NCBI RefSeq assembly: GCF_010894405.1
Contig: NZ_JAAIYA010000026.1
Location: forward strand, 111,494-175,493
Direction: 5' to 3'
DNA length: 64,000 bases
From: Pyxidicoccus caerfyrddinensis
GTDB taxonomy: Bacteria; Myxococcota; Myxococcia; Myxococcales; Myxococcaceae
Below, one piece after another: positions 1,497 to 47,035 of the stretch. A model generated the notes under the pieces. It searched no databases, was not told the origin of the DNA, and was given only the letters and a program-made list of their open reading frames with translations. Position numbers and translations under genes: made by a program. Positions within the stretch are counted from its first letter, which is position 1. Every line of letters starts with the position of its first letter.

Positions 1497-1526
1497 GCGC
1501 GCCCTGCCTATCACACGAGTCGTGCT

Positions 1527-2651: not shown

Positions 2652-3191
2652 ATGCGCATGCGAAAGCTGAGCTGGAGTGGCTTCGTGCTGTTCGGTCTGC
2701 TCGCCGGTTGCGCGAGCACGCCGGTGAAGGAGGAGCCGTCGGACGCCACCACGGAGGAGCGCCGTGAGGCGGAGGGCGGGGAGGAGGCGGAGGAGTCCAT
2801 CAAGAACACCACCTCCGAGGAGGGCAAGGCGCCCGTCCAGCCCATCATCGTGAGCGCGAGCCCGCAGGCGAAGGACCTCATCCGCATCGAGGGCATGCGC
2901 ATCCTGCGGGGCGTGCTGGACGTGAGCGTGTCCCACGGCGGCGGCTGCAAGGAGCACACGTACGCGCTGGCCTGGGACGGCACCTTCACCCAGGGCACGG
3001 ACGGCACGCCGGTGGCGAACCTGGTGCTGGTCCACGACGCCCACGAGGACCGCTGCAAGGCCATGAAGTACGCGACGCCGCGCTTCGACCTGGCGCCCAT
3101 CACCCAGGCCTTCCAGCAGAAGTACGGCAAGTCCACCGGCGCGGTGGACCTGGCCCTTCCGGGACAGGCCACCCTTCGCTACGAGTTCTGA
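2652..3191 (+). CDS. Lipoprotein of unknown function
   Basis: Signal peptide plus lipobox: MRMRKLSWSGFVLFGLLAGC/AST. GGAGG at 2647-2651 favours the second ATG at 2658 as the true start. An acidic low-complexity linker precedes a Cys-containing globular domain. The 3' end overlaps the convergent giant gene by 13 nt. Confidence 0.7.
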   Translation: MRMRKLSWSGFVLFGLLAGCASTPVKEEPSDATTEERREAEGGEEAEESIKNTTSEEGKAPVQPIIVSASPQAKDLIRIEGMRILRGVLDVSVSHGGGCKEHTYALAWDGTFTQGTDGTPVANLVLVHDAHEDRCKAMKYATPRFDLAPITQAFQQKYGKSTGAVDLALPGQATLRYEF

Positions 3192-6100
3192 GGCGGCGGC
3201 TTCGGAAGCTCGGTGACGCCGGGGATGTGCGTGGCGCCGGACTGCGTGAGCTTCTGGATGTCGTAGCCGCGCAGCGTCCCGGTGCGGACCGTGTCGCGCC
3301 AGTGGAAGACGGCGCGACGGCGGACCACCTCGGTGCGGAGGTCCTCCGGGCAGACCAGCTCCACGCGGGCGGGCGCGGGGCCCCAGGCGAAGCGGGCGCA
3401 CTCCACCTGCGGGTCTCCCTCCACGGGCTGCTGGCGGCGCAGCAGCGCGTAGGCCGCCTCGGGCACGGGTGTCACCGGCTCGGCGGTGATGCCCACCGTG
3501 AGGAATATGTCCTTGTTCTCGGTGACGCGCGACGAAGCCTCCGGCAAGGCCTTCAGGGTGAGCTTCAGCATCAGTGCCTCGCCCGGGCCGAGCACCGCGG
3601 GCTCCGTGCCGTCGCGCAGGTCCAGCAGCGATACCTCGCGCAGGCGCTCGGGCGCCACCGTGAGCGCGGGGGTGTCCACGCCGTCCTCGCGGACGCTCAG
3701 CGGCCGGGTGACTCCGCCCGGGCCCACGCGCAGCAGGGACAGGAGCGCCGGAAGCCCCGTCGTACCGTCGTCCCAGTCGAAGCGCAGCGCCATCCGGCTG
3801 TCCGGGTTGTACTCGCCACGGTCCGTGGCCAGCGTCACCGCGTGCAGAGCCTTCTGCGTCCCGTCCAGCGTCTTGACCAGCTGGGTCGCCCGCCGCGTCG
3901 TCGAGGCGAGGTGGCGGTTGTACTCGGGGTCCTCGAAGTGGAGGAACACGGGTTCCAGCGGCAGCGGCAGCACCCCCGGGTCCACCACCCGCAGCGGGAA
4001 GGTGAGCGTCTGGATGAAGCCCTCCGCGCCCGTCACGCGGCCGACGCGGGCGTGCACCGCAAGCACCCGGCCGGGCGCGAGGCGCTGGGAGAAGTCCGCC
4101 CGCACCTCCTCGGCGGAGCGTCCTCCCGTCCCCGCCAGCTTGAAGCCCAGGCGCCCTCCCTCCGCGGGCTCGGCGGGGCCGTAGGCGAACACCTTCCCGT
4201 CCAGCGGAATCTCCAGCGCGAGCGTCCAGTCCGCCAACGAGGCCCCCGCGTTCACGTCCGCCGACAGCGTCAGCGTGCCATCCCAGCTGGCGGGGATGGC
4301 ACCGTGCAGCGGGGCTTCCAGGACGAGCCGCAGGCGGTGGACGGGGCCGTCACCGAACGACGCGATGAAGGCCTCGTCCGCCGGAGAGGCCGTGGCCAGG
4401 ACGCTGTGCCCGGGTTCGAAGTGGCTGGCCCAGGTGCGCAGCGCGGCGCCGGGGTGCCGCGCGTCATTCTCCCGCAGCGGCACCGGGCGTGGCACGCGGT
4501 GCTGCACCGGGATGCTGCCGGAGACCATGCCCTGCCCGCGGTGGGCCTCGTCCCGGGTGGGGTCCAGCCCGGCCTGACGCAGGAGCTGGTGGCGCATGGC
4601 CAGCATCACTCCCGGCCGCGAGCCCGTGAGGTGGAAGCGCACCGTACCGGGCAGCACCGGTTGCCACCGCTTCATCCGGTCGGGCTCGTCCACGTTGAGC
4701 AACACACGCGGGCTCATCAGGGGCAGGGGCAGCTGGGGCAGCACCGGCAGCAGGCCCTTGATGGCGCGGGCGCGGAACAGCGGCGGCAGGCCCGCGGTGG
4801 GCCCGGCGGCGCTCGTGGCGGAGCGGAACTGCACCTGGTGCTGGAGCGCCTGCCACCACAGCGAGAAGGGCTTGTCGGGCACGCCGTCACGAGGGCCCAG
4901 CGTGCCCGTCGCCCCCTCCTGCTCGTGGGTGTAGTGCACGGTGGTGCGCAGCGCGCTCAGGCCCCAGGGCCAGTCGCGCGGCGATTGCTGCTGCGGCCCG
5001 CTCGCGGGCCGGTGGGCGCGGTGGATGGGCTGGACGCCGGTGACTTGCGGCGGCGCCAGCTCCAGGGGGCGCACCTCCTGGGGCAGCTCCTGGCCGCCGA
5101 AGTGCCCGTCGCGGAAGCGCAGCCGCGCCGGGGGCGAGCGCAGCTTGAGCACGCGCCGCGACAGGCCTCCCGTGCGCTCGAGTCCGGGGACGAGCGAGAA
5201 GGAGTAGGCGGTGGTCAGCACCGCTTCGTCCTCGCCCGACGCCACGGTCCGGTAGACCTCCCGGAACCGCAGCACGGCGAGCGGCGACTCGGGGGTGAGC
5301 CGACGGTGCATCTCCCGCGCCCAGGCGATGGCGGAGGCGCGGACCGCGTCGAGGCCCTCTCCGCCCTCCTTCACGTGGCTGGCGGCGGGCAGCAGGGCGC
5401 GGCGCGTGCGGTCCAGGCAGAGCAGCTCCACCACCACCAGCTCCGGGATGTCGTCCTCGCGAGGGGCCGCGGGGCGGAAGCCGAGGCCGAGGTAGGGGCT
5501 CACGGCGAGGCTCATCGGCGCGCGGACGGCATCCGCGCGCGGCGCGAGCGCGGTGGCGGCGGGGAAGCGGCGCGTCCCGGTGGCCGTCGACGGCCGGAGC
5601 CAGCCACCGCTCACGAGCTGGAGCGCGGTGAGCAGCCAGCCTGACGGCAGCGGCGTGGAGCTGCCGCGTTGTGTGAGTACGGCCTGGAGCGCGAGGAGCG
5701 CGTCCGGGCGCCACTGGAGGCGCGCCTGGCCCGGCAGCGGGTCCACTCCTCCGGAGGCCTTGGGCTGACCGGGCGGATAGGCGTTGCGGACCGGGTCGAA
5801 GGCGTACTGGAGCGCCGTGGCCCGGCTGAGCCTTGCGGGCGTCTCCGGCCTCGCGGCCAGCACGCTCTGGAGCGTGTCGAAGCGGGGCTCCGGCAGCGGG
5901 TGCTGCACTCGGAACCAGCTCTCCTCCAGCGACAGCGGGTCCAGCCTCGACCAGCTGCGCGCGCGGGCGGTGTCCAGGCTGGTGAAGGTGACGGCGGCGG
6001 CCTTGCGGTCGGCCCAGCCGCTCAGCGCCAGGGCCAGCGGGGGCAGCGCGGCCGGCTGCTTGCGCCGGCGCTCCAGGTTCAGCACCGGGTCCACCTGGAG

Positions 6101-9100
6101 CTGCGAGGCCGGGCCGGACGGGGCCTCCAGCCCGTCACGCGTCCGGTCCTGCAGGCGCCCGAGGAAGGGCACCACCAGCAGCAGCCAGCGCGGGTCCGCC
6201 GGGTCCGTGGGGCCGTAGTCCTGCGGGTTGCTCAGCAGGGCCTGCTGCGTGCCGCTCGGGAGGAACTGGAGCGTCGTGGCCGCGGTGGCCTTCACGGGCT
6301 CGCCCTTCACCCAGTGCAGCGCGGTGGCCTCCACCAGCAACGTACCGGCGGGCAGCGCGGCCAGCTCCGGAGCGCTCCCTCCCGCGAGCATCGTCCGGAC
6401 CTCCTGCCCCAGGTAGCCCGCGAGCACCTCGCCCACGGGGTCCACGTCGTCGGTGGGCGAGACGGCATGCAGGTCGCTGTCCTTGAAGCGCTGGAGGAAG
6501 GCCTTGAGCCCGGCGGGCGAGGCGATGCGCACCTCCTGCAGCGCCGTCCAGCGTCGGTCGTTGGACAGGCGCGGCGTGGTGAAGCCTTCACCCGGCGCCA
6601 CGTCCACGAGCTGGTGCTCCACCACCGCGAGGAACTGCCAGGACCTGCCGTCCGACAGGCGGAACAGCAGGTCTCCGGCGCTCACCTCGAAGGCGTCCCG
6701 TGGCAGCGCGTGCTGGTTGAAGAGGATGCGCGCCGTGTGTCGGACGTGGGCCAGTGGCACTGCCCCCGCCGCGGCCGGGACGGTGAGCGTCACCTTCGAC
6801 GCGTCGTACTGGAGGCTCGCCGGGTAGGAGAGGAGGTCCTTCACCTCCAGGTAGCCGTTGAGCAGCAGCGTCTCCGTCCAGGTGCTGTCCCGCGACTGGC
6901 CGGTGTAGCCGAACACCAGGTCGCCCGCGGAGGAGCCCGCCACCTGCGCCAGCGTGGGCTGCGCCGGGAGCGGCTCCGCCTGGAGGAAGGTGCCCCAGCG
7001 GCAGCTCAGCAGCGCCTCCACGAACGAGGTGCGCAGCCGCAGCGTGGGGACGTCCACCACGCCGGTGGCCGGTAGCAGCACGTCGAAGGACAGCGCCACG
7101 AAGCCGGGCGCGTCCTGGCCCACCAGCGACATGCCGGGAAGCAGCTGCAGGCCCGAGCTGCCCGGAGAGGGCATGGGCGCGCGGTAGCGGCTCCAGGTGA
7201 GCTGGAGCGCGCCGGGGCCGGTCTCGAGCGCCACCTCCGGTGGGGGCCGCTCCAGCTCCAGGTCGTCCAGCAGGAAGCCCGACTCCCAGATCGCCCTTCC
7301 CCGGCCGGGAAACGTGACGGCCGCCGCATCCTGACTGGTGCCCACCACGCCAAAGCGCACGCCCGCGCGGAAGGCCGAGCGCGCCACCGGGGTGGCCGTG
7401 GGACGGACCGCGCCTGGCGCGGTGGCTCCGGGCACCACCGGCACCCAGCGCACGGGCCGGGTCCGCGGGCCCGGCGGCATCTCCTGGAGGGCGCGGCCCA
7501 GCCGCACGTCCACCAGCAGCGACACCCGGTACTCGAGGCCGCGCGGGTCCAGCTCCACGGCGACTTCCTTCGGTGACAGCGGCTCGGCCGCGTCCAGCTC
7601 GGCCGGCACCATGCGCACGGAAAGCGGGGACGCCTTCCCGGTGAAGGTGAGCGCGGGCAGCGGCACGTTCCAGGTGGCGCCGAACAGCAGGAAGGCGAGC
7701 TGCACGCCGTCGACGCGGAGCCCGTCCTTCTCCGGTGTGAGGGCCGCGGAGCGGACGGTGAGGCGCGGGGCGTCTCCCAGCTCTCCGTTCGCGAGCTCCA
7801 GCGGCCATTCGCACTCCGCCGGAGCGCCCGGGGACGCCTCCAGCGCCGCCGCCGTCAAAGCCAGCCCGCCGCCGGACGGCGGCCGCTCGAAGGTGAGCCG
7901 GAGCGCGTTGCCCAGGTCCACCAGCTCTCCGCCGCCGGACAGGGGCAACTGCACGCGGCCCACCAACTCCAGTCGCGTCACCCCGGCGGCATCGAGCCGC
8001 ACCCGCTCCAGCGTCAGCGGGTAGAAGCCCAGCCCGAAGAGGGTGAAGGCGTCGACGTCGGTGGGCGGCGCCAGGCGCCACTCGTAGCCGTTGAGGACGT
8101 TGTGCTCGCGCGAGCCCGCCTCGGGGTCATTCACGTCCTGCGCGGCGGCGGAGCGGGTGCTGTCGCGCCGGAACTCACCCGCCGCGGCCGGCAGGTCCCT
8201 GAACCAGAGGCCCCACGTCAGCGCGCCACCCGTGATGGGGTCCTTCCCCAGGCCCAGCGTCACCGCCTCCAGCGTGGACACCAACTCCACCGCGGCGCCG
8301 CCCTCCAGGCGCACCGCCGTCCGCAGCTGCGTGCCCACGAGGCGCGTGGCCTTGCGCCACAGGCCCCGCTGGTCCCTCAGCCCCTCGCCGGCCTTCGCAT
8401 GGGCAGCCATGCTGCCCGCCACCAGCGTGTACGCGTCCGCGGAGGGCGTGCCCGCCGCGAGCCGGATGCCTCCGTCCGCGCTCTCGAAGCGGCCGGTGAA
8501 GCCCTCCAGGGCGGCCTCGCCCTTCAGCTCCACCGAGGCCGCGGGTGCTCCCGCCGCGTTGGCCACCACCAGCGAGCCCGGGTACGTGCCCAGCGCCAGC
8601 GTGGGGCTCACCGTCCACGTGTGCGGCTCCACCAGCCCCTGGACGCGCACGGCGCCGCCGCTGGAGGAGAAGGCGTCCACCGCGTCGGCGCTCGCCAGGA
8701 CGGCCAGCTCCGAGAGGCGGGACCAGTGGTCCGCCAGCGTCTCGCGAACCAGTGGCCGGGGCGGCTCCGGCGGCGAGTCATCCGCTGTGGGGGTGACTTC
8801 GTCCGGGCGGCGCGTGGGCGGCTTCAGCCGGGCCAGGGCCTGCGGTTCGTCCGTGTACGGCAGGTCCAGGCGGAGCTGCACCGGCAGGGTGGTGCCGGCG
8901 TCCAGCGGCAGCCCGGAGGCATTGGCGCCCGGCTTCAGCACCAGGCCTGGCAGCGACAGCGACACGAGCGGCAGGTCTGGCCTCCCCTTCCACTCGCACG
9001 CGGGGACCTGGGGCCCCCGTGCCCGGGGCCACGCGGCGGCGCCGTTCGTCCCGGTGACGCCGAAGCGCCAGCCCGAGGGAAGGGTGAGGCCGTTCATCTC

Positions 9101-11182: not shown

Positions 11183-11203
11183 GGACGTGGCTCCTGGCTC
11201 GAA

Positions 11204-14200: not shown

Positions 14201-17200
14201 CTCCGGGCGCAACTTCTCGTCGGACGTGTCTTCGTCATGGGCGAGGAGCGCGGCCAGCGGCTCGACGTCGGCGGGGAAGTAGGTGGTGCGCTCGTCGGTG
14301 ACCTGGAAGAGCGGCTCCAGGCGCATCCCCAGGAGGGCGGTGAGCGCGGCGGGCTCCTGGGCGAGCGTCGTGCGCAGCAGCGCGCGCGCGTCGGCGGACA
14401 GCGTGTGCGGCGACTGCGCCAGCACCAGCTCGGCGGCCGGCGTCTCACGGTACGTCACGTAGGCCGGCAGCGGCTCCTGGGTGAGCAGGGCCTGCGCCTC
14501 CGGGGACAGGGGCCTGCCCAGGGCCACGCCCGCGCCGGGCAGGTCCGCGAGCGACAGCGCCTCCGCCGCGCTGCGCGTCCTCAGCAGCACCTGCGTCTTC
14601 CCATTCAGCGGCAGCACGAAGGTGCGCTTCGACACCGTCCCGGTGGTGGCGCCCGGCTCGGGCTCCAGCTCCGCCTGTCCGGCGGCGGGGTTCGTCTGCT
14701 CCACCACGCTGCACGTGGTGGCCGGCTTCAGGTGGAGGACGACGTCCAGCGGGGCCCCGGCGGGGCCTTCCAGGTGGATGGCCGAGTACAGCGCGCGCTG
14801 TCGCACCACCGGCCGCAGGCTGAGCTGCACCAGCGCGAGCAGGTCCTCCGCGACGACGGCGCCCTCCCGCAGCGCGACGGCACGTCCCGGCTGGAAGAGC
14901 AGCTCGACATGGAGGTGCCGGGCCGCTTCGTCCGGGAGGACGCCCTGCTGTGCCAGCACGTCACGCACGGCGTCCAGCAGGGCCTGGCCCTTCAGCACCT
15001 CGCCCGTCCGCGGCTCGCGCAGGCTGAAGGCCATGCTCAGCCCCAGGCGCTGGAGCACGCCCCAGCCGTACGGGTCCGCCTGAGCCGCCGTGGCGCGCAG
15101 CAGGTCCGCGAAGCTGCCCGGCTGGGTGGGCGGGCTGATCTGCAGGTCCACGGTGAAGGCCGGCAGTTGCGAGTCCCCGGCCGGGCGCTGGAGGCGCTGG
15201 ACGATGCCCGCGAGCACCGGGTGCAGCGCGCTGGTGCGCGACGGCGCGGGCGAGTCCGTCAGGCCTGGCCAGTGCGGCCACTCGAGGAGGGACTCGCGCC
15301 AGGACGGACCGGGCGTGAGCGAAAGCTGCGAGCCCGCCGCGCGCGCGGCCGGCGTGCGGCGCCGCTGCAGGGTGCTGGGGTACCAGGCCTCCCACGCGCT
15401 GGTGGCCAGCGTGTCACCGGGGACGAGTTGCATGTCCCCGGCCGGCAGCATCTGCACTTCCTGCAGGCCGCGCAGCGCGCGGGACAGCCGGTCCGCGTCG
15501 CCGAACGTCTCAGTGGTGTGCGCGTCGGTGTCCAGCTCCAGCAGGTGGTAGCCGGCATGCAGGTCCAGCGGGTGGTCCGGCGCGCCGCTGGGGCCCTGGT
15601 TCCACCGGAACCGGATGCACCGCACGCCCGCCGGGTGCTTCTGGTGGAGCACCCCGGTGAGCTGGCCATTGAAGCGGAAGGCCTCCGGGTGGCCCACGGT
15701 GCCCACCGGCATGGGGAAGTGCGCGTCCTCCACGGTGGCGCGTACGTCCTCGGGCGGCAGCACCGGCAGCACCACCGGCGAGGGCAGCCACTCCAGCTCG
15801 GCGGGGCGGCGCTCCTCGCGGCGGCGGTTGTCCGTGTCGTCCGCGGGGGCGTCCGCGCGCACCACGCGCAGCAGCAGCTGCACGGGTGCGAGCGCGGAGG
15901 GCACGCCGTTGCCCGACTCCGTCTGCATGAACAGCCGCCAGGCCTCGGGGCGCCAGGCATCATTCTCGGCGGGGAGCACGCGCAGCTCGCGCAGCTTCGT
16001 GAGCGGCACCTCGGCGACGCGCTTCTCGCGGGGGCCGGTGGGCACCACGGTGACGCGCACGTCGGTGGGCAGTGGCCGCGCGTTGCTGGTGGGCAGGGAG
16101 CGGGCGCCGGCGCGCTGGGTGGCGCTGTCCAGCCCGTAGCTGCCGATGGGCAGCGACGTCTCGCGCCGGAAGACGAGCACGTATGTCTTCACCGGCACCT
16201 GCGGCTGGCCGGGCGCTGCGGATGGTTCGGACCACTCCAAGAAGACGCGGTCCGGCGTCACCACCCTCGGCGTCCCCACGTCGCGCCGGGCGAGGATGGC
16301 GAGGTCCACCTTGTAGCGGACGACGCACTCGGCGTTCACCGGCACGAGCGGCGGCTCGCTGGGGTAGCGCGTGGCCACCACCGTCAAGGGGCGGCCCGCG
16401 TTGCCGGCGAAGTCGTAGGGCGTAATCGTGTAGAGGTAGCTGCGGCCGCTGAGGGGCAGCGCGGCCAGGTCCTCCGCCGTGTCCTCGTGGAAGTGGTCCA
16501 CGAGCTGGAAGCGCGGCTGCAGGCGCTTGAGGGCGCCGCCCTCGCGGTGCAGCGTCTGCGCGCCCTTCAGCGTGTAGACGGCTTCCGGGGTGTTGCTTTC
16601 CAGCCCGCGGCGGCGGACGTGGTAGTGGACCAGGTGGTGCTCGGGCGAGGCCTGGGCCGGCGTCAGCCCCGCGCGCGGGGGCTGCTCCCAGACCAGCTCC
16701 CACGCCAGGGCGATGGTGCGCGCGTCGGTGAGCTGCTGCACCCGCCGGAACTGGGGCGGATTGCGCGTGAAGTTCGTGTCGCGCACGTTGAAGGTGCGCA
16801 CCGACACCTCGGACCCGGAGCAGGTGGTGTCCTCCACGCGGATGCGCTGGCGGAGCCTGGGCTCGGGCTCACCCCTCTCGGGCACGCCATCCAGCCACGC
16901 GGGCAGGCCACCGCTCACGCGGAACACCAGGCCCATGTGCAGCGCGACGGAGCGCTCACGCTGCTCCGGCGTCAGGCCGCTGCCGTCCGGCGACGCGGCC
17001 AGCGCGCGCAGGTCCGCGACGATGTCATGCACCACCATGCCGCGCAGCTGGTGCGCCTGCTGCTCCTCCAGCATCTTGCGCAGGCCCGGCGCATCGTCCG
17101 GGACCTTGCCGTCGTCGGAGTACACGGTGGTCCTGTCCTGGTACGCCTGTCCAAGCAGTCGGTCGTACTCCACCCGCGTGTCGTCGCGCTTGAAGAAGGG

Positions 17201-20200
17201 CGAGCCCCGGAACTGCTCCACCGCGCCGCGCACCGCGGCCTCGAAGGCGTTGTCGGTGGGGTTGTGGACGCGGTCGTCCGCCACCACGTCCTCTGACCGC
17301 GTCGGGGGCAGGCGAGCCGGATCTCTCAATCGAATGGTGGCACCCAGCGCGTCCACCTCGGTGACGAAGGCATGGCGCAGGTAGCGCGCCAGCGTGAAGG
17401 TCTCGTCCCCCACCTCGGGCACGCCCGTCTCCGAGTACCTTTCCCCCTTTTTCTCCAACTCCGTCTCCCAGTGGGCGCGCCACGCCACGTCCTGGGAGGG
17501 CTGACCGGGGGTGGGCGCGTGGGGCTTCCACATGCCCGTGAGCGGGTCGAGCTGCTCCAGCGTGTACGTGTCCTTCGCGGCCCGGGGCACGGTGAGGACG
17601 AAGTCGTTGTAGCCGGGCTGAGCCCACGCACCCTCCGCGGGCGGCACGGGCAGGAAGCCGGGCTCCTCCTCCACCTCCCCGCTCGGGGTGGGCCGCTCGC
17701 CCTGTGGCATCAGTACGAAGTAGTGGGTGCCCTTCGGGTCCTCGGAGCGGATGGCGAACACCGTGTAGCCCGGGGCCTCGAACGTGCCTTCCGCCAGCGT
17801 CCGGCGCTGGAGGGCCGGGGGTGCTTCTTCCGTACGAAGGGTGTCGGCGCGCAGGGCGGCGGGCGCGGGACGGCCGCTCCGGAGGGCGGCGCCCTCGACG
17901 CCGGGGATGCCCTCGACGTCGGTGGCTTCCAGTCCGTAGTCGAGCACGTGCTTCGTGCGCTCCAGGGCCTCGGCCACCTTGCCCTCCCTCATACCGATGT
18001 GCGCGCTGAGGTGGAAGCTGCGGCCCATCACCGACAGCGACAGGGTGCCGGTGCCGCGCAGGCCGATGCCGTTGGGGGACAGGCCGACCATGCCCACCTC
18101 CAGCCCGGCGGTGAAGTCGATGCCGAAGCTGAAGCGGAACGACTTCTTTATCTTGATGAAGCCCAGCTTCAGCTTGATCCAGAACTCGATGGCGAACCGG
18201 ATGTGCGCCTCGATGCCGATGCCGCCGTAGAGCGCGGAGCTGCCCACCGGGTCCTTCAGGCTGAGCAGGCCGATGTAGCGGGCGCCGTATGCGAGGCTGG
18301 CCTGGGCGCTGACGCGCACACCGACGATGCCCAGGTTCACCTGGGCGCTGAAGTCCAGCTTCGCGCGGGCGAGGAAGCTGGTGCCGGTGACGAGCTCCTC
18401 GCGCGACAGCCGCCAGATGAAGCCGCCGCGCAGCTCCGCCTCCAGCGGGCCCAGCTTCTGGCTCCAGCGCAGCATGTTGGGCCAGCCCAGCTCGTAGTGC
18501 AGCAGTCCCGGCTCCACCAGCAGGGTGGCGGAGAACTGGCAGCTGGTGAGGGCCTTCTCCACGAACTCCGGCAGCTGCGGGTGGGGCCCGAGCTGGCCGT
18601 TGGGGTTGGAGGCCACGTGCGCCAGCAGCCGCTTCTGCCGCGGTGACAGCAGCACGAAGCCGGAGACGAAGGGGCGCTCGCGCAGGCCTTTGTAGTTGCT
18701 GACGTAGTCGTAGTAGTTCGCGTTCAGCCAGCCGCGCACCGCCATGAAGAACGTCAGGTCGCTGCGGAAGGCGATGACGGCGTCCAGCAGGAAGAGGCAG
18801 GAGATGAGCTTCTCGGCATTCTCATCCCACTGCAGCGGCGACGCGGACGCGGACGTCTGGGAAATCATCGCGCGCAGCACGATGGTCCACCGCGGGTCCT
18901 GTCCGGGGTCCTCCAGGTCCAGCGCCCACCGGTCCCGCTTGGAGAGGTCACCCTGCGTGCGCGACAACTTCTTGAGCTCCTTCAGCAGCTCGCGCACATC
19001 GTTGGCCTGGTCCGCGGCCTTGATGCTGGCCAGGGTGTAGCGGTACCCGAAGCCCAGGCCCACCTCGCGCACGTACAGCTGCACGACGGGAATCATCAGG
19101 CTGATCTGCCGGGCCTCCAGGTAGATGAACCAGGCGCGCAGCCAGGGCGAGGACTCGTCGCGGCGCACGCGCAGGAAGGAGAAGGCGGCGGCGAAGGTGG
19201 GCAGGCCCTGAATCTGGAGCGTGCCCTCGCCGGAGAAGCCCTTCTCCGTGGTGCTGTCCACGAAGTCCACCACGCCGTTGAGGCGGAAGGCGGCGCCGAA
19301 GTTGAGGTTGACCGGCAGGTTGCCGAAGTGGAGGCGCGGCAGGAAGTGGCCCTCCTCCGGCAGGCCGATGTAGAGCCGGTGGTAGTCCACGCGGGTGTCC
19401 GGCGTGTCGCCCGCGCCCTGCGCGAACTTGAGCTGGCCGGTGAGCAGCATGGCCCCGTCGCCGCCGAAGACGTCGGCCTGTGGGATGAAGCCGATGCCGC
19501 GCAGCTCCAGCTCGAAGCAGCCCAGGAAGCTGAAGGACAGCGGCTTGGGCAGCTCGATGAGGAAGCGCACGTGCTTGGAAATGACGCGCGCGTCGCCGGT
19601 GAGCGGGCACTCCACCAGGTCGATGCGCAGCTTCGGCAGCAGCGCCAGCGCACCCTCCGCGTCGTCGCTCTCCGCGAGGCGGAATTGCGCGCTGCCGGTG
19701 AGCACGAAGTACAGGTGGAAGCGCCCATCGTTGACGAAGCGCAGGCCGATGGCGTCCACCTGGAACTCGAAGCGGGTGCTCTGGCAGTGCAGCAGCTTGG
19801 AGCCCCGCAGGCGCGCGCCGCCGGACACCAGCGTCAGCGCTCCGTCGCGCTGCGCCAGCTGCAGCGAGATGTCCGCCATGGCGTCGCCCACCAGCGCGGG
19901 CGGCATCGGTCCGGAGCCGTTGAGGGTGAAGTCCTGGACCCGGTTCTCCACGATGACGAGCCGGCTGTCATTGAAGCGGAAGCGTGTGTCCAGGCCGTTG
20001 AGCTTCGCGGGCCGGTCGGTCACCGTCGCGGTGACGTTGAGCCCCTTGGGGGTGAGCGCGAAGTCGGTGATGGCGAAGACGATGGGCTCGTCGCTGACGT
20101 GGAGGTACTTCACCTCGAAGGACGCGCCGGGAGCCTGCTGGAGCTGGTAGTTGTACTTGTCCGTGGCCAGCGTGAAGAGGTGGTAGCGCGTCTTGCCGTT

Positions 20201-21622
20201 CTCGGTGATGGGCGTGCCCTTGAAGCCCCAGGTGAGGCCCAGGTACTCCACGGGCTTGCCGTTCTCGTCCTTCGGTGCCAGCTCCGCCTCGTTCGCGTAC
20301 AGCTTGAGGCCGTCGCTGTGCCGCACGGCGAAAGAGAAGGTCTCCCAGTTGAAGGCCAGCTCCGCGGTGGTCTCCAGGTTGAGCGGGCCGAAGCTCACCT
20401 TCACCGTGACGGGCACGGCGATGGAGTGGTTGGGGATGTCCAGGGTGATGGCGCTCAGGTTCGGCTTCACCTGGAGGAACTGCGGCGCGTCCTCGCCGCC
20501 CGGCTCCTGCTTGAGGAAGGGCAGGGTGAAGGGCGCCTTCTCCAGGTTCAGCTTGAAGCCGAAGCTCCAGTCCTCCGCCCGCATGCTGAAGGAGTCCGTG
20601 GCGGTGGGCAGGCACAGCGTGTCGGGGTCGCCGTAGTTGAGCGGCTCCAGCGCGGTGGTGAGCTGGCGGAGGAAGTGGGGCAGCCGGGCCTCCTTCCACT
20701 CGAACTCCGCCAGGGCCAGCGTCACGCGCTGTTTCGCGGCGATGGACAGCTGGAGCAGCGGGTCTGGCGACGCGCGGCCCTGGTCGGCGTGGACCTCGCG
20801 GCCCTCGTCGCGCTCCCAGGCGAAGTCGCTCGTCACCGTCAGACCGGAGCCCTCGGCGAAGGTGAGGTAGAGCCCGGCCTGGCTCAAGGAACGGTCGTCG
20901 CCCTCCGCCTTGGCGTTCACCACGACGCTGAGCTGCGTGTCGTCCGGGAGCTGGAGATTGAGCCCGGGCAGGGGCAGCGCGCGGCCCATGCCGCCCAGCT
21001 CCACGTCCACGCGGACCTCGCGCAGCGGCTGTCCGAACACGAGGCGGAAGGTGATGGCCTGCCGCGCGAAGGTCTGCCGGTCGAGCTGCTCCCAGGTGAG
21101 GGCGAGGCACTCGCGGCCGAGGTGGAAGCCGGCGATGTCCAGCTCGCTGCCATGCTCGAACAGCCCGGGCAGGAAGGCGCGCAGGCGCACGTCGGTGGCG
21201 GTCAGCTCCAGCGCGCTGCTCACGCGCAGGGTGCCCCGGAACGAGAAGCCGGGGGCCTCACCCGCCCCGCCGTCCAGGCCGAGCTGCCCCGCGTCCAGCT
21301 GCACGCAGATGGGGATGTCGTGGAGGATGAGCTCCAGCTCGTCGGTGAACCTCACCTCCGCGCGCAGGAAGGTCAGCCCGTCGCGCACCTCGCCCACGGT
21401 GAGCCGCGCGCCGTCCTGGCCGGCCAGCGGCACGGACAGCTCGCCTTCGATTCCCAGCCACGCGGTGGCGTCGAGCGTGCCGTTCCCCGTGCGCGCCTCG
21501 TAGTCGAGCACGTGGACGCCGCCGAAGAGCTGGCGCAGCGCGGGTTCTGGGAACATGCCGCCGGGAATGGCGGTATCGGCGAGGAAGCCATCGAGGCGAC
21601 CCAGGGAGCGGTAATAGGGCAT
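11204..21622 (-). CDS. Giant protein (3472 aa), unknown family. N-terminal ~1200 aa is rich in amphipathic beta strands, the middle carries FN3-like modules, and the C-terminus has six ~70-aa tandem repeats
   Basis: Uninterrupted 10.4-kb ORF starting 15 nt after the stop of the 757-aa gene. Motifs: AIEFWIKLKLGFIKIKKSFRFSFGIDFTAGLEVGMVGL (alternating polarity); SGRSYLYTITPYDFAGNAGRPLTV (FN3 F/G-strand-like); repeated LxWxGPxxxxxxxxLxxLxGD units near the C-terminus. Confidence 0.85.
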   Translation of the reverse strand: MPYYRSLGRLDGFLADTAIPGGMFPEPALRQLFGGVHVLDYEARTGNGTLDATAWLGIEGELSVPLAGQDGARLTVGEVRDGLTFLRAEVRFTDELELILHDIPICVQLDAGQLGLDGGAGEAPGFSFRGTLRVSSALELTATDVRLRAFLPGLFEHGSELDIAGFHLGRECLALTWEQLDRQTFARQAITFRLVFGQPLREVRVDVELGGMGRALPLPGLNLQLPDDTQLSVVVNAKAEGDDRSLSQAGLYLTFAEGSGLTVTSDFAWERDEGREVHADQGRASPDPLLQLSIAAKQRVTLALAEFEWKEARLPHFLRQLTTALEPLNYGDPDTLCLPTATDSFSMRAEDWSFGFKLNLEKAPFTLPFLKQEPGGEDAPQFLQVKPNLSAITLDIPNHSIAVPVTVKVSFGPLNLETTAELAFNWETFSFAVRHSDGLKLYANEAELAPKDENGKPVEYLGLTWGFKGTPITENGKTRYHLFTLATDKYNYQLQQAPGASFEVKYLHVSDEPIVFAITDFALTPKGLNVTATVTDRPAKLNGLDTRFRFNDSRLVIVENRVQDFTLNGSGPMPPALVGDAMADISLQLAQRDGALTLVSGGARLRGSKLLHCQSTRFEFQVDAIGLRFVNDGRFHLYFVLTGSAQFRLAESDDAEGALALLPKLRIDLVECPLTGDARVISKHVRFLIELPKPLSFSFLGCFELELRGIGFIPQADVFGGDGAMLLTGQLKFAQGAGDTPDTRVDYHRLYIGLPEEGHFLPRLHFGNLPVNLNFGAAFRLNGVVDFVDSTTEKGFSGEGTLQIQGLPTFAAAFSFLRVRRDESSPWLRAWFIYLEARQISLMIPVVQLYVREVGLGFGYRYTLASIKAADQANDVRELLKELKKLSRTQGDLSKRDRWALDLEDPGQDPRWTIVLRAMISQTSASASPLQWDENAEKLISCLFLLDAVIAFRSDLTFFMAVRGWLNANYYDYVSNYKGLRERPFVSGFVLLSPRQKRLLAHVASNPNGQLGPHPQLPEFVEKALTSCQFSATLLVEPGLLHYELGWPNMLRWSQKLGPLEAELRGGFIWRLSREELVTGTSFLARAKLDFSAQVNLGIVGVRVSAQASLAYGARYIGLLSLKDPVGSSALYGGIGIEAHIRFAIEFWIKLKLGFIKIKKSFRFSFGIDFTAGLEVGMVGLSPNGIGLRGTGTLSLSVMGRSFHLSAHIGMREGKVAEALERTKHVLDYGLEATDVEGIPGVEGAALRSGRPAPAALRADTLRTEEAPPALQRRTLAEGTFEAPGYTVFAIRSEDPKGTHYFVLMPQGERPTPSGEVEEEPGFLPVPPAEGAWAQPGYNDFVLTVPRAAKDTYTLEQLDPLTGMWKPHAPTPGQPSQDVAWRAHWETELEKKGERYSETGVPEVGDETFTLARYLRHAFVTEVDALGATIRLRDPARLPPTRSEDVVADDRVHNPTDNAFEAAVRGAVEQFRGSPFFKRDDTRVEYDRLLGQAYQDRTTVYSDDGKVPDDAPGLRKMLEEQQAHQLRGMVVHDIVADLRALAASPDGSGLTPEQRERSVALHMGLVFRVSGGLPAWLDGVPERGEPEPRLRQRIRVEDTTCSGSEVSVRTFNVRDTNFTRNPPQFRRVQQLTDARTIALAWELVWEQPPRAGLTPAQASPEHHLVHYHVRRRGLESNTPEAVYTLKGAQTLHREGGALKRLQPRFQLVDHFHEDTAEDLAALPLSGRSYLYTITPYDFAGNAGRPLTVVATRYPSEPPLVPVNAECVVRYKVDLAILARRDVGTPRVVTPDRVFLEWSEPSAAPGQPQVPVKTYVLVFRRETSLPIGSYGLDSATQRAGARSLPTSNARPLPTDVRVTVVPTGPREKRVAEVPLTKLRELRVLPAENDAWRPEAWRLFMQTESGNGVPSALAPVQLLLRVVRADAPADDTDNRRREERRPAELEWLPSPVVLPVLPPEDVRATVEDAHFPMPVGTVGHPEAFRFNGQLTGVLHQKHPAGVRCIRFRWNQGPSGAPDHPLDLHAGYHLLELDTDAHTTETFGDADRLSRALRGLQEVQMLPAGDMQLVPGDTLATSAWEAWYPSTLQRRRTPAARAAGSQLSLTPGPSWRESLLEWPHWPGLTDSPAPSRTSALHPVLAGIVQRLQRPAGDSQLPAFTVDLQISPPTQPGSFADLLRATAAQADPYGWGVLQRLGLSMAFSLREPRTGEVLKGQALLDAVRDVLAQQGVLPDEAARHLHVELLFQPGRAVALREGAVVAEDLLALVQLSLRPVVRQRALYSAIHLEGPAGAPLDVVLHLKPATTCSVVEQTNPAAGQAELEPEPGATTGTVSKRTFVLPLNGKTQVLLRTRSAAEALSLADLPGAGVALGRPLSPEAQALLTQEPLPAYVTYRETPAAELVLAQSPHTLSADARALLRTTLAQEPAALTALLGMRLEPLFQVTDERTTYFPADVEPLAALLAHDEDTSDEKLRPEAVQWRRFRRYAESLSSTDPGMPAEQKIRIPASGSALEDVLPDVLTWSQRFFDATGRIDFTQDGPLVAPEGPWVATAYPRASSPAYSSPDESGRLTYDHLLEDAWAHNYRFYVRPFARYDLLWQGLRQSPLLYPDAPAVEPARPDPLAGGLDVVMDRTRAVDMPLVLSSTRLDADAPLEPSAPDEPLPPVVPSEPGSTWEVVVAQHPEQALMERNQTLARQLGFRQVAFTLLRGFAFPGWVSALEGAAGLSGPLVLTPVEDRVPEIPGTLPEQPEHLDLSGRLSVEDARGLDLPLRVGAFQQGAQVIQWEGLPFYYKHRLLLMAQTHSTVSPLNEVRQRDFEYRAPEKPVAWVEGMTRTGWVPTPPFGGTTPASGLTVRARGLGIPLRRLWESLPERAQQRWGSERPRPGGRGPSWLPDLDVVYQVVEEHQGNVEVQAELYFDAAAGAFAKRQLGGHFLADIAALSLPEVPLGTEEDRFLLAVTVQQVTELELSRPYTAPQQASIPEPTRSKLAFNARRLSFVGVLTHEDRQNLAVLDALDRQAVGRVHDGWYARVPVASAMDVPASLADVVDFEKPEDLPLVWTGPLDAAQAQALRALPGDEELRRTVETLIATAAGAGADTVTTVVAPRGPEQLPPALAQKVELRTDAAGTAYTTLVWKGHLWAEHQLEIDRWVRVTALADAFARLKEAFDAAVATRPLPAARPLAGELPAVLRGRLGITDAKLRWKGPAPTDAEREALAALAGDAAFLGARTRLLAAIDTDRTVPHLGERPAEDTLPEFVRAQLRFATGTVTWTAPAPTDAQRAALLAMPGDAQWQGTVRLLLQLVDVDQEVDLAPVKRRPRQGDLPDALSARLTVEPTAVHWRGPLDDITQREQLLALDGDAPFVAALQALVADLDARVLQVPFTAPLRPTLDAAHPLSARLVIGGAVLRYHGLMTRDEALRLRALFPRGAEKAAVERLHKQSHSRGMDDRKLGIRARRGSARPSPIHPLDSRPL
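11207..12460 (-). repeat. Six protein-level tandem repeats (~68-76 aa each) forming the C-terminal 418 aa of the 3472-aa protein
   Basis: Repeat starts: LVWTGPLDAAQAQALRALPGDEEL / LVWKGHLWAEHQ / LRWKGPAPTDAEREALAALAGDAAF / VTWTAPAPTDAQRAALLAMPGDAQW / VHWRGPLDDITQREQLLALDGDAPF / LRYHGLMTRDEALRLRALF. Each linker ends in an acidic residue followed by LPxxLxxxL. Coordinates come from my residue counting. Confidence 0.7.
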
Positions 21623-21637
21623 GGCGGGCTCGTGGCG

Positions 21638-23911
21638 CTACGAGAGGGGAAGCTCGTCGGGGCGGATGACCCACAAGGTCCCGACGATGCGGTTGTCCCA
21701 GGTGACGGAGTTGGCGGCCCAGGTGGTCTGCGTCTGGGCCCAGTTCTGGCCGCGCAGCGCCTGGATGTTGGCGTCGTTGACGCCGTTGAGCGCGCGCTGT
21801 TCGACCTGGTAGCGGTCGATGACGTAGTCGCGCAGCACGTTGTGCAGGGGCGACACCAGGCACCCCGCGGAGCCGGTGCCGGTGTTCTGGCCGCTCATGG
21901 TGCCGCGGTGGATGCGGACGTTCACCTTGCCGCCGTGGGTGGGTGACGTCTGCGGGTCGTGGCCCGCCTCGGGCACGTCCTCTGTGACGTGCTCGCCGAA
22001 GTAGAAGCGCGCCTCGCGTAAGCCGTCGTAGGCGGTGACGTCCGGGTCCACGACGGTGAAGGTGTAGTTGCGGAACTGCGGGCCACTGCCCGTTCCGGGC
22101 GAGCGGTAGCTGGCCCAGTGGTAGCGGCGGTTGCCCCGCACGGACGACAGGTTCTGGTCGTTGGCAGGGTAGTTGCGCGAAGTGAAGCTGGTGTAGCGCA
22201 CCTGCGCGTGCACCTCGCCGTTGTGCACGACGAACATCACCCCGTCGTAGTGGTCATAGAAGCGGGGGTTGGCCGGGGTGGCGGGGACGGCCGGACCCAG
22301 GTCATAGGCCAGCGCGGGCAATTCGCCGCTGAGGCCAGCGGGGATGTGCCAGGCGGAGGTTCCGCCGCCGAAGTCCGGGTTGCCGTCCAGGGTGAGGGTG
22401 CGCTGGACGCGGTCGAAGGCGGTGATGCGGTAGGTGCGGCGGGGCCGCGCGGTGTCCGAGGGCAGGTAGACGGTGTCGAAGCGCGCGTTGAGCTTGTTGA
22501 TGTTGGGGGTGCCGTCCAGGCGCACCGTGTTGTCCGCGGTGCGCGTGGCGGAGGCGCCCTGCAGCCGTCCGCCCAGCGGGTCGATGAGCACCAGCACCTG
22601 CCGCAGGCTGATGCGCCACGGGGACGGATTGCCGCCGAGGTTGGGCTCGCTGGCGCCGGCCTCCAGCGTCACCTGCCGGTTGGCCACGTCCACCGCGGTG
22701 ATGCGGTACCACTTCCGGGGGCGCGCGGTGTCCGCGTCGAGGTAGAGCAGGTCCTTCCCGGCGCGCACCCGGCTCAGGTCCATGGTGCCGTCGAGGGTGA
22801 CCTGGTTGCCCGCGGCGGTGGCGGCGGCGCCCTCCGGGTCCAGGAAGTCGATGGTGGTGGCCGCCGTGGGCGTGCCAGGCACCGCGCCGGCGAGCCAGGG
22901 GTCGTCGAAGAGCGAGTAGAACTCGACGATGGCCTCGAGCTGGAAGAGGTTGAGCGCGTCGCGGTCGTTGAACTCGAAGGGCGGGGCGGTGCTGCCCGCG
23001 GGGGCGTGGCCCGCGCGCTTGAGGAGCTGCTCGCGGTAGAGCGCCTTCTGGTGGTTGCCCACCTGCCGCCACTGCGCGGCGGTGAGGTGGAGGCGGTCCT
23101 TCGCCTCCTTGAGCACGCTGAACGGATAGAGCGACGCCTGCACCAGTCCGAGCAGCGCGGCCGGCGTCGCCGCGTCGATGACGGGCCACTTCCTGGGCGC
23201 GAGGGTGAGGAGCTCATCCACCTTCGGCTGCCCCTCCTCCACGAAGTCGCGCATCACGTCGTAGAGGTGCGACGGGTCCGTGGTGCCGGAGAAGGTGAGC
23301 ACGGAGAAGCCCACCTCGCGGGTTCCCGCCTGGCCTGCGACCGGCGCGGCCCGGCCGATGGCATGTCCCGCCGTCACCGGCACGTCCACCTGCCCGCGGA
23401 TGAGCAGGTCCACCACCCGCGCGCGGTTGAGGCCCTGGTTGGGGATGAGGAAGTCCAGCTGCTCCGCCAGCGCGGCCTCCAGGGAGCCCGTCTCGATGTC
23501 CAGGTAGATGAAGCCACGGAGGCCGCCCAGCTGCTGCGCGCGCTGTTGGAAGGCCTGCGCGCCCGTCATGACGAAGGACGGGTGGAGGTACAGCTTCACG
23601 CGGGGCGGGAGCGGCTCGTAGTCCTCGGGCAGGTCGAAGGGCTCCGTCGGGTCGGGTGCTCCACCCAGCGGCGGGCGCGCGGACAGCGTGCCGGCCATCA
23701 CCGCGAGAAGCTGCCCGGTGTCGGTGGTACGGAGCCGGAGGTGGTCGCGGAAGGCGTGCTGAGGCCCGGGCGTGGACGGGGCCGGCCCATAGCCGTGGAC
23801 GCGCGTCCATGGCGTGGGGGCGACGAAGGGCGGGTTGATGAACAGCCGGAGCGGTTTGGCCAAGCGCGACTCCCCCTCAGATTCGCGTCGATGCGGCGCT
23901 GACGCTTCCAT
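21638..23911 (-). CDS. 757-aa protein of unknown family with an internal duplicated module and a C-terminal YkuD (L,D-transpeptidase)-like His/Cys motif; first gene of the giant operon
   Basis: ORF with native codon bias and no signal peptide (MEASAPHRRESEGESRLAKPLRLFINPPF). C-terminal motif VNVRIHRGTMSGQNTGTGSAGCLVSP. A 122-bp divergent intergenic region lies upstream. Confidence 0.8.
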   Translation of the reverse strand: MEASAPHRRESEGESRLAKPLRLFINPPFVAPTPWTRVHGYGPAPSTPGPQHAFRDHLRLRTTDTGQLLAVMAGTLSARPPLGGAPDPTEPFDLPEDYEPLPPRVKLYLHPSFVMTGAQAFQQRAQQLGGLRGFIYLDIETGSLEAALAEQLDFLIPNQGLNRARVVDLLIRGQVDVPVTAGHAIGRAAPVAGQAGTREVGFSVLTFSGTTDPSHLYDVMRDFVEEGQPKVDELLTLAPRKWPVIDAATPAALLGLVQASLYPFSVLKEAKDRLHLTAAQWRQVGNHQKALYREQLLKRAGHAPAGSTAPPFEFNDRDALNLFQLEAIVEFYSLFDDPWLAGAVPGTPTAATTIDFLDPEGAAATAAGNQVTLDGTMDLSRVRAGKDLLYLDADTARPRKWYRITAVDVANRQVTLEAGASEPNLGGNPSPWRISLRQVLVLIDPLGGRLQGASATRTADNTVRLDGTPNINKLNARFDTVYLPSDTARPRRTYRITAFDRVQRTLTLDGNPDFGGGTSAWHIPAGLSGELPALAYDLGPAVPATPANPRFYDHYDGVMFVVHNGEVHAQVRYTSFTSRNYPANDQNLSSVRGNRRYHWASYRSPGTGSGPQFRNYTFTVVDPDVTAYDGLREARFYFGEHVTEDVPEAGHDPQTSPTHGGKVNVRIHRGTMSGQNTGTGSAGCLVSPLHNVLRDYVIDRYQVEQRALNGVNDANIQALRGQNWAQTQTTWAANSVTWDNRIVGTLWVIRPDELPLS
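22337..22807 (-). repeat. Tandem duplication of a ~65-68 aa module inside the 757-aa protein
   Basis: Copy 1 is NQVTLDGTMDLSRVRAGKDLLYLDADTARPRKWYRITAVDVANRQVTLEAG...SPWRI (22604-22807). Copy 2 is NTVRLDGTPNINKLNARFDTVYLPSDTARPRRTYRITAFDRVQRTLTLDGN...SAWHI (22337-22531). The DNA cores also match (GGTGATGCGGTA...CGCGCGGTGTCCG). Confidence 0.75.
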
Positions 23912-24033
23912 CTGCCCATGCGCCTGGGTTTGGAGACAAGAGAAATCTGGGATTGGCTCGCCTGCTGGGGATGATGATTGCAGCCGTGAAGGACGGTTCC
24001 AGTCGCGGGCTCGGGGGATGCTAGGGTTCCAGC

Positions 24034-28729: not shown

Positions 28730-28812
28730 GTCTCGTGCCTCCTGCTTGGTGTGGAGAATACACCAACGTTCCACGCGCGCGAGCCTGACACGGGCACTAC
28801 ACTGCCGGCACG

Positions 28813-29548: not shown

Positions 29549-30892
<1,344 letters not shown>

Positions 30893-30972
30893 CCCACGAA
30901 TCAAACACGGAAACCGCATGATTTGAATCGTGGCCGGGAAACACCGCTCCAGCAGTTCCGGACACTTGGCCC

Positions 30973-30988
30973 TGGCAGGGGGCGTGCA
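30973..30988 (+). promoter_or_regulatory. Candidate sigma-54 (-24/-12) promoter for the flotillin-like gene
   Basis: TGGCAGGGGGCGTGCA compared with consensus TGGCACG-N4-TTGCW. GG and GC are separated by exactly 10 nt. It lies ~50 nt upstream of the ATG at 31038 and next to the divergent EBP gene. Confidence 0.4.
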
Positions 30989-31037
30989 GTGGAGGGGGGC
31001 ACTCCCGCACTCCCGCGGGCGGCAGGAGAAGGGCCTC

Positions 31038-45130: not shown

Positions 45131-45155
45131 ACACCTCCGGTTGACGGACGGCTTT

Positions 45156-47018
<1,863 letters not shown>

Positions 47019-47035
47019 ATCGGACGGGAACTCCT

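Follow-up and report, generated by a model that had tools for sequence, protein, structure and literature searches.

We analyzed a 64,000-nt stretch of Pyxidicoccus caerfyrddinensis (Myxococcota) DNA (NZ_JAAIYA010000026.1), hereafter the window, in whose numbering its features are given. Three consecutive genes lie on its minus strand: gene 1 (21638..23911), a 757-aa open reading frame (ORF), or 741 aa from what is probably its true TTG start; gene 2 (11204..21622, 3472 aa), which encodes the first of two conserved giant proteins; and gene 3 (3179..11182, 2667 aa), which encodes the second giant and is the obligate downstream partner of gene 2. We show that this trio is one case of a modular, horizontally mobile cassette, in which two conserved giants (gene-2 type, ~3,000-4,400 aa; gene-3 type, ~2,600-3,600 aa) are preceded by an exchangeable first gene that encodes an enzyme wherever it can be annotated.

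Coding evidence and features of the three genes

The minus-strand intervals between the genes are short, with 15 nt between genes 1 and 2 (21623..21637) and 21 nt between genes 2 and 3 (11183..11203), and an AGGAG motif (11195-11191) stands 8 nt before the gene-3 ATG. An earlier note on this DNA had described these three co-directional ORFs, both gaps and the AGGAG motif; all were confirmed, and the operon architecture is upheld. Antisense ORFs of up to 1024 aa are present in this 72% GC DNA, therefore ORF length alone proves no coding. The trio consists of real genes because GC is 0.94-0.95 at the third codon position and about 0.5 at the second, the NCBI gene calls for genes 2 and 3 have identical coordinates (WP_164000171.1 and WP_164000169.1), and homologues of all three genes are found in other phyla. 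The products of genes 1-3 are identical to annotated hypothetical proteins of P. caerfyrddinensis. Gene 1 contains an in-frame TTG at 23863-23861 (minus strand), with GAGGGGGAG upstream at 23878-23870 and a 6-nt spacer. Translation probably starts at the TTG at 23863 and yields 741 rather than 757 aa, since GAGGGGGAG precedes it, NCBI annotates 741 aa, and the family consensus begins there.

Scans for sigma-70 promoters and intrinsic terminators at both operon ends were negative, which is uninformative in 72% GC Myxococcota DNA. Upstream of gene 1 (23975-23991, minus strand), a TGGAAC-N5-TTCA motif loosely resembles a sigma-54 -24/-12 element; its -12 GC is missing, and it may be due to chance. 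A gene for a sigma-54 enhancer-binding protein is located at 29549-31048, 5.6 kb from this motif.

No protein of the trio gave a significant match in Pfam, NCBIfam, PADLOC or PHROGs (with the PADLOC-DB v2 models, none of them matched any family even at E<=1), and sequence or profile searches of the PDB with gene 1, full-length gene 2, the gene-2 core and gene 3 returned nothing credible. The earlier statement that these proteins belong to no recognizable family was thus borne out, also by the HMMER search against Pfam that had been proposed as its check. For gene 3, we dismissed as noise a DUF5639 match at E 0.075 that did not reach the cut-off of this family. The FN3-like modules suggested earlier for gene 2 found no match in Pfam. 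The conserved body was likewise devoid of Pfam coverage in three long and 15 further gene-3 relatives and in five gene-2 relatives. Literature searches on DUF6603, on giant proteins in myxobacteria, and on YkuD with polymorphic toxins returned no description of these families.

The absence of transmembrane helices reported earlier also held, as no hydrophobic 19-mer reached the transmembrane level in any trio protein. No signal peptide was evident when the N-termini of the trio and of nine partner proteins were read by eye, with no predictor, and no lipobox was visible in either group; the nine partners include proteins with peptidoglycan-binding, OmpA and amidase domains. We consider the trio to be putatively Sec-independent, because its proteins lack hydrophobic segments and because neither they nor the nine partners have a visible signal peptide.

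The gene-1 product is a predicted enzyme built from peptidoglycan-directed folds. Its AlphaFold2 (AF2) model is confident (predicted local distance difference test [pLDDT] 88; predicted template modelling score [pTM] 0.90) and combines a degenerate LytM domain with a YkuD (L,D-transpeptidase/carboxypeptidase) fold. The N-terminal LytM/M23-like beta domain (23279..23809, minus strand; residues ~35-211) has the M23/LytM fold. It is degenerate because the HxxxD and HxH Zn-ligand motifs are not conserved (residues 35-211 contain no invariant or near-invariant His or Asp in a 36-sequence alignment) and because the PHLHFE of M23 enzymes is replaced by REVGFSVLT. In SpoIIQ, EnvC and DipM, degenerate LytM domains scaffold or regulate envelope complexes.

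The C-terminal domain (21662..22249, minus strand; residues ~555-750) adopts the beta-sandwich fold of YkuD (PF03734) and carries the YkuD motif as H668-x12-S681-A-G683-C684 (His668 codon, 21910-21908; Cys684 codon, 21862-21860). None of H668, S681, G683 and C684 varies among 36 homologues, and the protein contains no cysteine other than Cys684, so that the L,D-transpeptidase-like His/Cys motif spotted earlier is real. The Arg that typically follows the catalytic-motif Cys of classical L,D-transpeptidases is absent (GCLVSP), and no Pfam or NCBIfam model, YkuD included, recognized gene 1 at E<=1; one UniRef record calls the Archangium homologue 'YkuD domain-containing'. No export signal for the periplasm or wall was seen in gene 1 (no hydrophobic segment, and no signal peptide by eye).

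Between the two domains, gene 1 contains a duplicated beta module (22343..22837, minus strand), in which residues 359-434 match residues 450-523 (local alignment score 128 between tiles). Internal repeats were found by a tiled Smith-Waterman scan, whereas BLAST self-comparison missed them; the duplication claimed in the earlier note is therefore genuine, and the same module is present in a 1585-aa protein of another locus (L016).

We found 55 gene-1 homologues, from Myxococcota (Archangium, Sorangium), Crocosphaera, Nakamurella, Micromonospora and many metagenomes. The next-best match was 56% identical, and no close orthologue was present in the protein collection. Some relatives are fused to PG_binding_1, one (L005) lies after Baseplate_J and Amidase_2, and PG_binding_1, PG_binding_3, OmpA and Amidase_2 domains occur in relatives or partners. 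Together with the LytM and YkuD folds, these domains support the link to peptidoglycan that had been suspected.

Gene 2 is 62% identical to its Archangium minus homologue and 40% identical to its Crocosphaera homologue over >3000 aa. Conservation peaks in a core (17903..20125, minus strand; residues 500-1240) that averages 56-79% identity, compared with 40-45% for the whole protein (four homologues, three phyla). In the AF2 model of this core, built with 29 homologues (pLDDT 85.5, pTM 0.67), the fold is all-beta and amphipathic, and its final four strands form hairpins and are 21-24 residues long. The beta-rich N-terminal third expected from the first reading was hence recovered. The long antiparallel hairpin sheet (17990-18445, minus strand; residues ~1060-1211) resembles outer-membrane beta-barrels, and the top structural matches of the core are closed barrels, not grooves. 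Comparison of the core with the folds in BFVD gave no meaningful viral match (template modelling [TM] scores <0.2). A protein-collection search with the 741-aa gene-2 tile returned only proteins of <=1280 aa, as the index apparently omits very long proteins.

At the other end of the protein, a C-terminal array of ~70-aa repeats (11315..12469, minus strand; residues ~3052-3436) shares the motif L.W.GP...E...L..L.GD..F, looks helical, and scores 88-115 against a shuffled maximum of 59. Six repeats had been counted here: three copies are clear (residues 3186-3373), and the other three are degenerate but share the motif.

Gene 3 was analyzed by an exhaustive HMMER search with its N-terminal 1200 aa against clusters at 50% identity. 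This block matched 284 cluster representatives and, among the matches listed, most were 2,600-3,600 aa long, with shorter fragments besides. The least conserved segment of gene 3 (7133..7585, minus strand; residues ~1200-1350) has an identity of 0.20-0.30. In one relative (P0067), a Laminin_G_3 lectin domain occupies residues 1255-1401, just after the conserved N-terminal block; Laminin_G_3 was detected in four of 15 long gene-3 relatives, and WD40 in one of them. Judged from P0067, the one mapped case, residues ~1200-1350 may represent a general insertion site.

A conserved pair with an exchangeable first gene

To the window locus, a genome scan added four loci (Archangium, Crocosphaera, Phormidium tenue and a Rhodothermales metagenome-assembled genome [MAG]) and a metagenome scan a further 44. 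Gene 3 lies directly after gene 2 in all four genome-scan loci, and a gene-3 homologue follows gene 2 (~3,000-4,360 aa) in about 30 of 30 metagenome loci with downstream DNA. Of the genome-scan loci, only those of Archangium and Crocosphaera have gene 1, and it preceded gene 2 in only two of the metagenome gene-2 loci with downstream DNA. The pairing of genes 2 and 3 is therefore universal in the loci examined, always in this order. The check that had been proposed, whether the trio is conserved as a unit, gave a divided answer: genes 2 and 3 are always adjacent, but gene 1 occurs in five of ~40 gene-2 loci.

Loci with the pair were found in Myxococcota, Cyanobacteria, Rhodothermales, a Verrucomicrobiales MAG, rhizobial plasmids and metagenomes, and fragments extend the families to Chloroflexota and Actinomycetota. 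Among the named sources of relatives are Sorangium, Ardenticatenaceae, Anaerolineaceae, Actinomadura, Bacteroidota, Kofleriaceae, several cyanobacteria, Verrucomicrobiales and Calditrichota. A divergent gene-2/gene-3 pair is carried, mostly on conjugative plasmids (8 of 11 plasmid matches), by Rhizobium, Sinorhizobium, Mesorhizobium, Bradyrhizobium, Cupriavidus and Undibacterium. In Mesorhizobium onobrychidis pOM4 (L061, plasmid positions 178218-220413), for instance, the divergent pair encodes proteins of 3872 and 2600 aa, with an IS21 element downstream; 3.4-15.6 kb upstream of it are genes for unusually large enzymes, namely an S8 peptidase (1309 aa), a phospholipase D (PLD)-like protein (826 aa) and an M20 hydrolase (1303 aa).

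Reduced or broken versions of the pair were also observed. One metagenome contig (L011, contig positions 10001-16487) encodes a 'mini' pair, in which a 1227-aa protein matches gene 2 at residues ~285-1303 only, and the 907-aa protein that follows matches gene 3 at residues ~1334-2214 and has an OmpA peptidoglycan-binding domain and no visible signal peptide. In the Verrucomicrobiales MAG (L012) and one metagenome contig (L013), the reading frames of the gene-2 and gene-3 homologues are broken, and many ORFs in different frames follow one another. These splits could reflect pseudogenization or long-read assembly indels, and L013 might really consist of several separate genes.

In most loci, a gene on the same strand immediately precedes gene 2. 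This gene belongs to the gene-1 family in five of the ~40 loci containing gene 2, and the others have PhoD-like or unrelated first genes: a PhoD-like group (~800-860 aa, seven loci), a 340-430-aa family (five loci), two small families and many singletons. The stoichiometric three-protein complex proposed in the earlier note is not sustained, and gene 1 as a fixed subunit was rejected, as it is absent from most gene-2/gene-3 loci. Pfam domains in the first genes and in the variable gene-2 N-termini were PhoD (4), PG_binding_1 (3), PG_binding_3, Peptidase_S8, PLDc_2 and DUF6603. The DUF6603 match (PF20248, E 1.9e-5) was in one divergent relative or variable N-terminal region; gene 2 itself gave none.

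The N-terminal domain of gene 2 (21119..21622, minus strand; residues 1-168), here termed the adaptor, strictly co-occurs with gene-1 homologues. A hidden Markov model (HMM) of residues 1-168, built from gene-1-linked sequences only, matched only proteins encoded directly downstream of gene-1 homologues (E 1e-9 to 1e-73), namely the gene-2 homologues of Archangium, Crocosphaera, L021 and L023, and the DUF6603-type giants of L014, L015, L016 and Nakamurella. Gene-2 homologues without gene 1 (~35) escaped it, the best-scoring one reaching E = 0.007. By hhalign, the adaptor and the N-termini of the DUF6603-type giants were related with 98.3% probability. When gene-2 N-termini were grouped into families, these clustered with first-gene families for the gene-1 and 376-aa types, and the PhoD-like and 340-430-aa types shared one N-terminal cluster. 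Co-variation of the first gene with the gene-2 N-terminus suggests that the first-gene product is physically coupled to gene 2, and is the strongest functional clue that we obtained.

Gene-1 homologues also occur in a second type of cluster (L014, L015, L016, L006 and L062), where a DUF6603 protein or a relative of it lies downstream, upstream or divergently adjacent. Several more large unannotated proteins follow, and no gene-3 homologue was found in L006 or L014-L016. In L014-L016, a 998-1585-aa family with the N-terminal motif HLRW...GFPW.GYYLFR is encoded upstream of the gene-1 homologue. In Nakamurella multipartita (L001; CP001737.1, 3131592-3153934), the gene-1 homologue is followed by a 935-aa adaptor protein, an insertion sequence (IS; HTH_Tnp_1, rve) and a 936-aa ORF. 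The downstream giant gene appears to be IS-disrupted, and a CYTH protein and a LuxR/AAA_16 regulator are encoded upstream.

The surroundings of the cassette vary from locus to locus. Its neighbors include TIR and DUF4062 (L007), a STAND NTPase (L009), a KAP NTPase and a transposase (L011), PLD, an integrase and PG_binding_1 (L013), CHAT (L014), and LuxR-type AAA_16/GerE regulators (L001, L016); at a Streptomyces plasmid locus, TIR/MoxR and recombinases are nearby. In the window, the flanks encode a family 4 glycosyltransferase (GT4), two unannotated ORFs, an NADase-translocation-like F5/8 protein, an NADAR protein, a sigma-54 activator, an SPFH protein and sugar-nucleotide enzymes. None of these flanking genes, up390, dn179 and GT848 included, has a counterpart at the Archangium or Crocosphaera locus, and a conserved role for those three was rejected for that reason. 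The idea that the flanking genes look cell-wall directed is accordingly weak, for a GT4 glycosyltransferase stands among unrelated genes that are not conserved with the trio. A Pfam scan of the trio and 20 flanking ORFs (23 window ORFs) detected no sheath, tube or baseplate gene, and no type VI secretion system (T6SS) gene or adjacent immunity gene was found in the window.

Several genes of the window deserve separate mention. The 848-aa GT4 glycosyltransferase (84-2630, plus strand) also matches a 'GT4-conflict' model (E 5.7e-17), and the NADase-translocation F5/8-type-C domain protein (26792-28141, minus strand) and the NADAR protein (28208-28774, minus strand) are conflict-flavored. A 179-aa ORF (2652-3191, plus strand; third-position GC 0.95) is convergent with gene 3, whose last 13 nt it overlaps; its exact sequence is absent from the protein collection, and it has no Pfam match and no counterpart in Archangium or Crocosphaera. 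Unrelated to the trio, and itself poorly characterized, is an atypical three-gene Hsp70-like cluster (42353-47857, minus strand), which encodes a 925-aa protein with a C-terminal DUF3731 'DnaK-related' domain, a 620-aa Hsp70/MreB-like protein and a 273-aa DUF2760 protein.

These data indicate that (i) genes 2 and 3 form a conserved pair; and (ii) the cassette is sporadic, mobile and accessory in character, since no close orthologue was found in the protein collection and since it is found on conjugative plasmids and has IS elements, integrases and conflict genes nearby. Such a character fits a conflict system, and not housekeeping envelope biogenesis.

Candidate functions of the cassette

We favor, with a probability of roughly 0.4, a Sec-independent conflict module in which a giant scaffold would deliver an interchangeable hydrolase to a cell envelope. 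Gene 1 would dock on the gene-2 N-terminal adaptor, and genes 2 and 3 would assemble into a large Sec-independent scaffold. The barrel-like sheet of gene 2 would then engage a membrane and gene 3 would contribute target binding, with the lectin or WD40 modules of its relatives as candidate binding parts, so that the complex would bring the docked hydrolase to a cell envelope. The target in this predatory myxobacterium would most likely be the peptidoglycan of another bacterium, a competitor or prey. The weapon would be released by lysis or otherwise non-classically. Its logic would be that of the Tc/ABC toxins, to which the trio is not homologous, and, at the effector level, that of Tlde1, an L,D-carboxypeptidase effector of the T6SS.

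Several points weigh against such a module. No release or secretion mechanism was identified for the trio, and no immunity gene follows gene 1; antibacterial peptidoglycan effectors usually come with one. The TIR, DUF4062, STAND, CHAT and KAP neighborhoods fit self-directed defence equally well. Genes 2 and 3 together have 6,139 residues, of which structure models cover 741, and the barrel-like match spans ~190 of those 741 modelled residues. Long antiparallel sheets in general give such a match, and a soluble beta structure might do so as well. Finally, the putative docking of gene 1 on the adaptor is read from co-occurrence.

A bolder form of the delivery idea is that genes 2 and 3 constitute a new class of giant Sec-independent protein-delivery apparatus, whose barrel-forming beta core would cross membranes and which would load interchangeable enzymes (peptidoglycan hydrolase/transpeptidase, PhoD-like phosphodiesterase, subtilase or phospholipase D) via matched N-terminal adaptors. 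Neither the type 1 to type 11 secretion systems (T1SS-T11SS) nor Tc toxins nor contractile injection systems would be related to it, and it would have spread horizontally, conjugative plasmids included, across at least seven phyla. We regard this proposal as possible, if doubtful.

Unlikely, but the best of the alternatives, is anti-phage or abortive-infection defence. Here the giants would be an intracellular sensor and scaffold that holds the enzymatic effector inactive; on infection the effector would be freed, the beta-sheet module would breach the membrane, and the cell's own envelope would be destroyed in an endolysin/holin-like manner. Loci of the cassette do lie among conflict genes (TIR/DUF4062, STAND, CHAT, KAP and PLD in the five loci named above, and TIR/MoxR on the Streptomyces plasmid), although such neighbors may merely reflect variable genomic islands. 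Defence systems typically combine a conserved core with an effector that can be swapped, the missing immunity gene and the endolysin-like presence of peptidoglycan-binding domains without signal peptides fit self-targeting, one gene-3 relative has a WD40 domain, and the distribution is sporadic and, in Pseudomonadota, plasmid-borne. However, PADLOC gave no match, the conserved scaffold of ~6,100 aa is far above any known defence system in size, and the conserved pair has no NTPase, nuclease or nucleotide-signalling domain. The Laminin_G_3 lectin domains of gene-3 relatives and the Baseplate_J context of one gene-1 relative, moreover, point outward rather than to the producing cell.

Following the earlier note, the cassette could be read as a housekeeping machine of the host's own envelope or cell wall that acts as a fixed three-protein complex, be it in sporulation or surface assembly, which the note named, or in remodelling peptidoglycan; we now judge this improbable. 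The peptidoglycan-related folds of gene 1, the PG_binding and OmpA domains of relatives, and the envelope complexes served by the degenerate LytM proteins SpoIIQ, EnvC and DipM all speak for it. Yet the trio has no transmembrane segment and neither trio nor partners show a signal peptide or lipobox, unrelated first genes replace gene 1 in most loci, and the protein collection holds no close orthologue. The cassette, furthermore, is distributed over monoderm and diderm phyla and plasmids, and conservation does not extend to its flanking genes. A machine for sporulation or surface assembly is thus disfavored because gene 1 can be replaced, export signals are missing, and the cassette is mobile and occurs sporadically.

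Two further explanations have very little probability left. In one, a phage-derived or contractile-injection accessory, a tail-like particle would contain the giants as structural parts or cargo, with gene 1 as a tail-associated lysin, as the gene-1 relative encoded after Baseplate_J and Amidase_2 might suggest; but sheath, tube and baseplate genes are missing from the 23 window ORFs scanned, viral contigs yielded no relative of gene 1, GenBank phages yielded none of gene 1 or of the gene-2 core, and neither PHROGs (all three proteins) nor BFVD (gene-2 core) gave a meaningful match, so that a phage origin was rejected on these searches. In the other, equally remote, the all-beta, amphipathic core of gene 2 would be an envelope-spanning groove or taco of a bridge-like lipid- or polymer-transfer protein (AsmA/TamB/VPS13-like), with genes 1 and 3 as accessories; against this, Pfam detected no AsmA, TamB or DUF748 domain in the trio, which also lacks a membrane anchor and a signal sequence, the relatives extend to the monoderm Actinomycetota and Chloroflexota, and the top structural matches are closed barrels rather than grooves.

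If the modular reading is right, ~6,000 conserved and wholly unannotated residues would represent a widespread molecular machine, with members in predators, cyanobacteria, actinomycetes and on rhizobial plasmids. The exchangeable set of enzymes suggests a programmable enzyme-delivery platform, which could matter for bacterial antagonism, predation and immunity. The gene-2 core, the gene-3 body and the gene-1/adaptor pair would each make a new annotation family, none being covered by Pfam.

Comparison with known systems

As far as sequence, profile and fold comparisons can tell, the cassette corresponds to no described system; it appears to be undescribed. The nearest structural likeness of the gene-2 core is to outer-membrane barrels. 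TonB-dependent receptors, FhaC/BamA, LptD and SprA align with ~190-330 of its residues at 3-10% identity, a match that may reflect the generic topology of an antiparallel meander. Outer-membrane barrels have a Sec signal peptide, whereas gene 2 has a partial barrel-like sheet only and no signal peptide by eye, and its homologues extend to phyla generally regarded as monoderm (Actinomadura, Anaerolineae). A classical outer-membrane protein was rejected because of the missing signal peptide and these homologues in monoderm phyla.

Gene 1 can be compared with Tlde1/Tae5 (L,D-carboxypeptidase/transpeptidase effectors of the T6SS) and with the L,D-carboxypeptidases Csd6 and Pgp2. It is 4-5 times larger than these enzymes, adds degenerate LytM, helical and duplicated beta modules, and has no Pfam YkuD match. 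In contrast to Tlde1/Tae5, it is coupled to giant proteins, and the window contains neither T6SS genes nor an adjacent immunity gene. EnvC, NlpD, DipM and SpoIIQ resemble gene 1 in having a LytM fold without the catalytic Zn ligands, and degenerate LytM domains act through protein-protein contact at the cell wall. Those four proteins are exported and serve their own division or sporulation machinery, whereas gene 1 is a swappable accessory with no export signal.

Similar in architecture are the DUF6603 (PF20248) giants of Actinomycetota and others. They share with gene 2 the 150-aa N-terminal adaptor (hhalign probability 98.3%) and the same upstream gene-1 partner, and a weak similarity between the DUF6603 region and the gene-2 core is possible (hhalign 58% probability, E 1e-4). 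Their clusters differ from the cassette in that they contain other large proteins and no gene-3 homologue, and PF20248 does not match gene 2 itself. DUF6603 is itself uncharacterized, and we found no mention of it in the literature.

A parallel in logic is offered by the Tc (ABC) toxins of Photorhabdus and Yersinia (TcA, TcB, TcC). Like the trio, these are encoded in operons of very large proteins without signal peptides. Like the cassette in the reading that we favor, they combine a conserved delivery scaffold with a variable enzymatic component, carry receptor-binding modules inserted in the large subunit, and have spread horizontally. Tc toxins leave the producer by lysis. They share no sequence or profile similarity with the trio, in which Pfam detected no VRP1, TcA_TcB_BD, SpvB or RHS domain. 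The variable enzyme of Tc toxins is a C-terminal hypervariable region held in a cocoon, whereas that of the cassette is the product of a separate upstream gene, matched by an N-terminal adaptor on the giant that follows.

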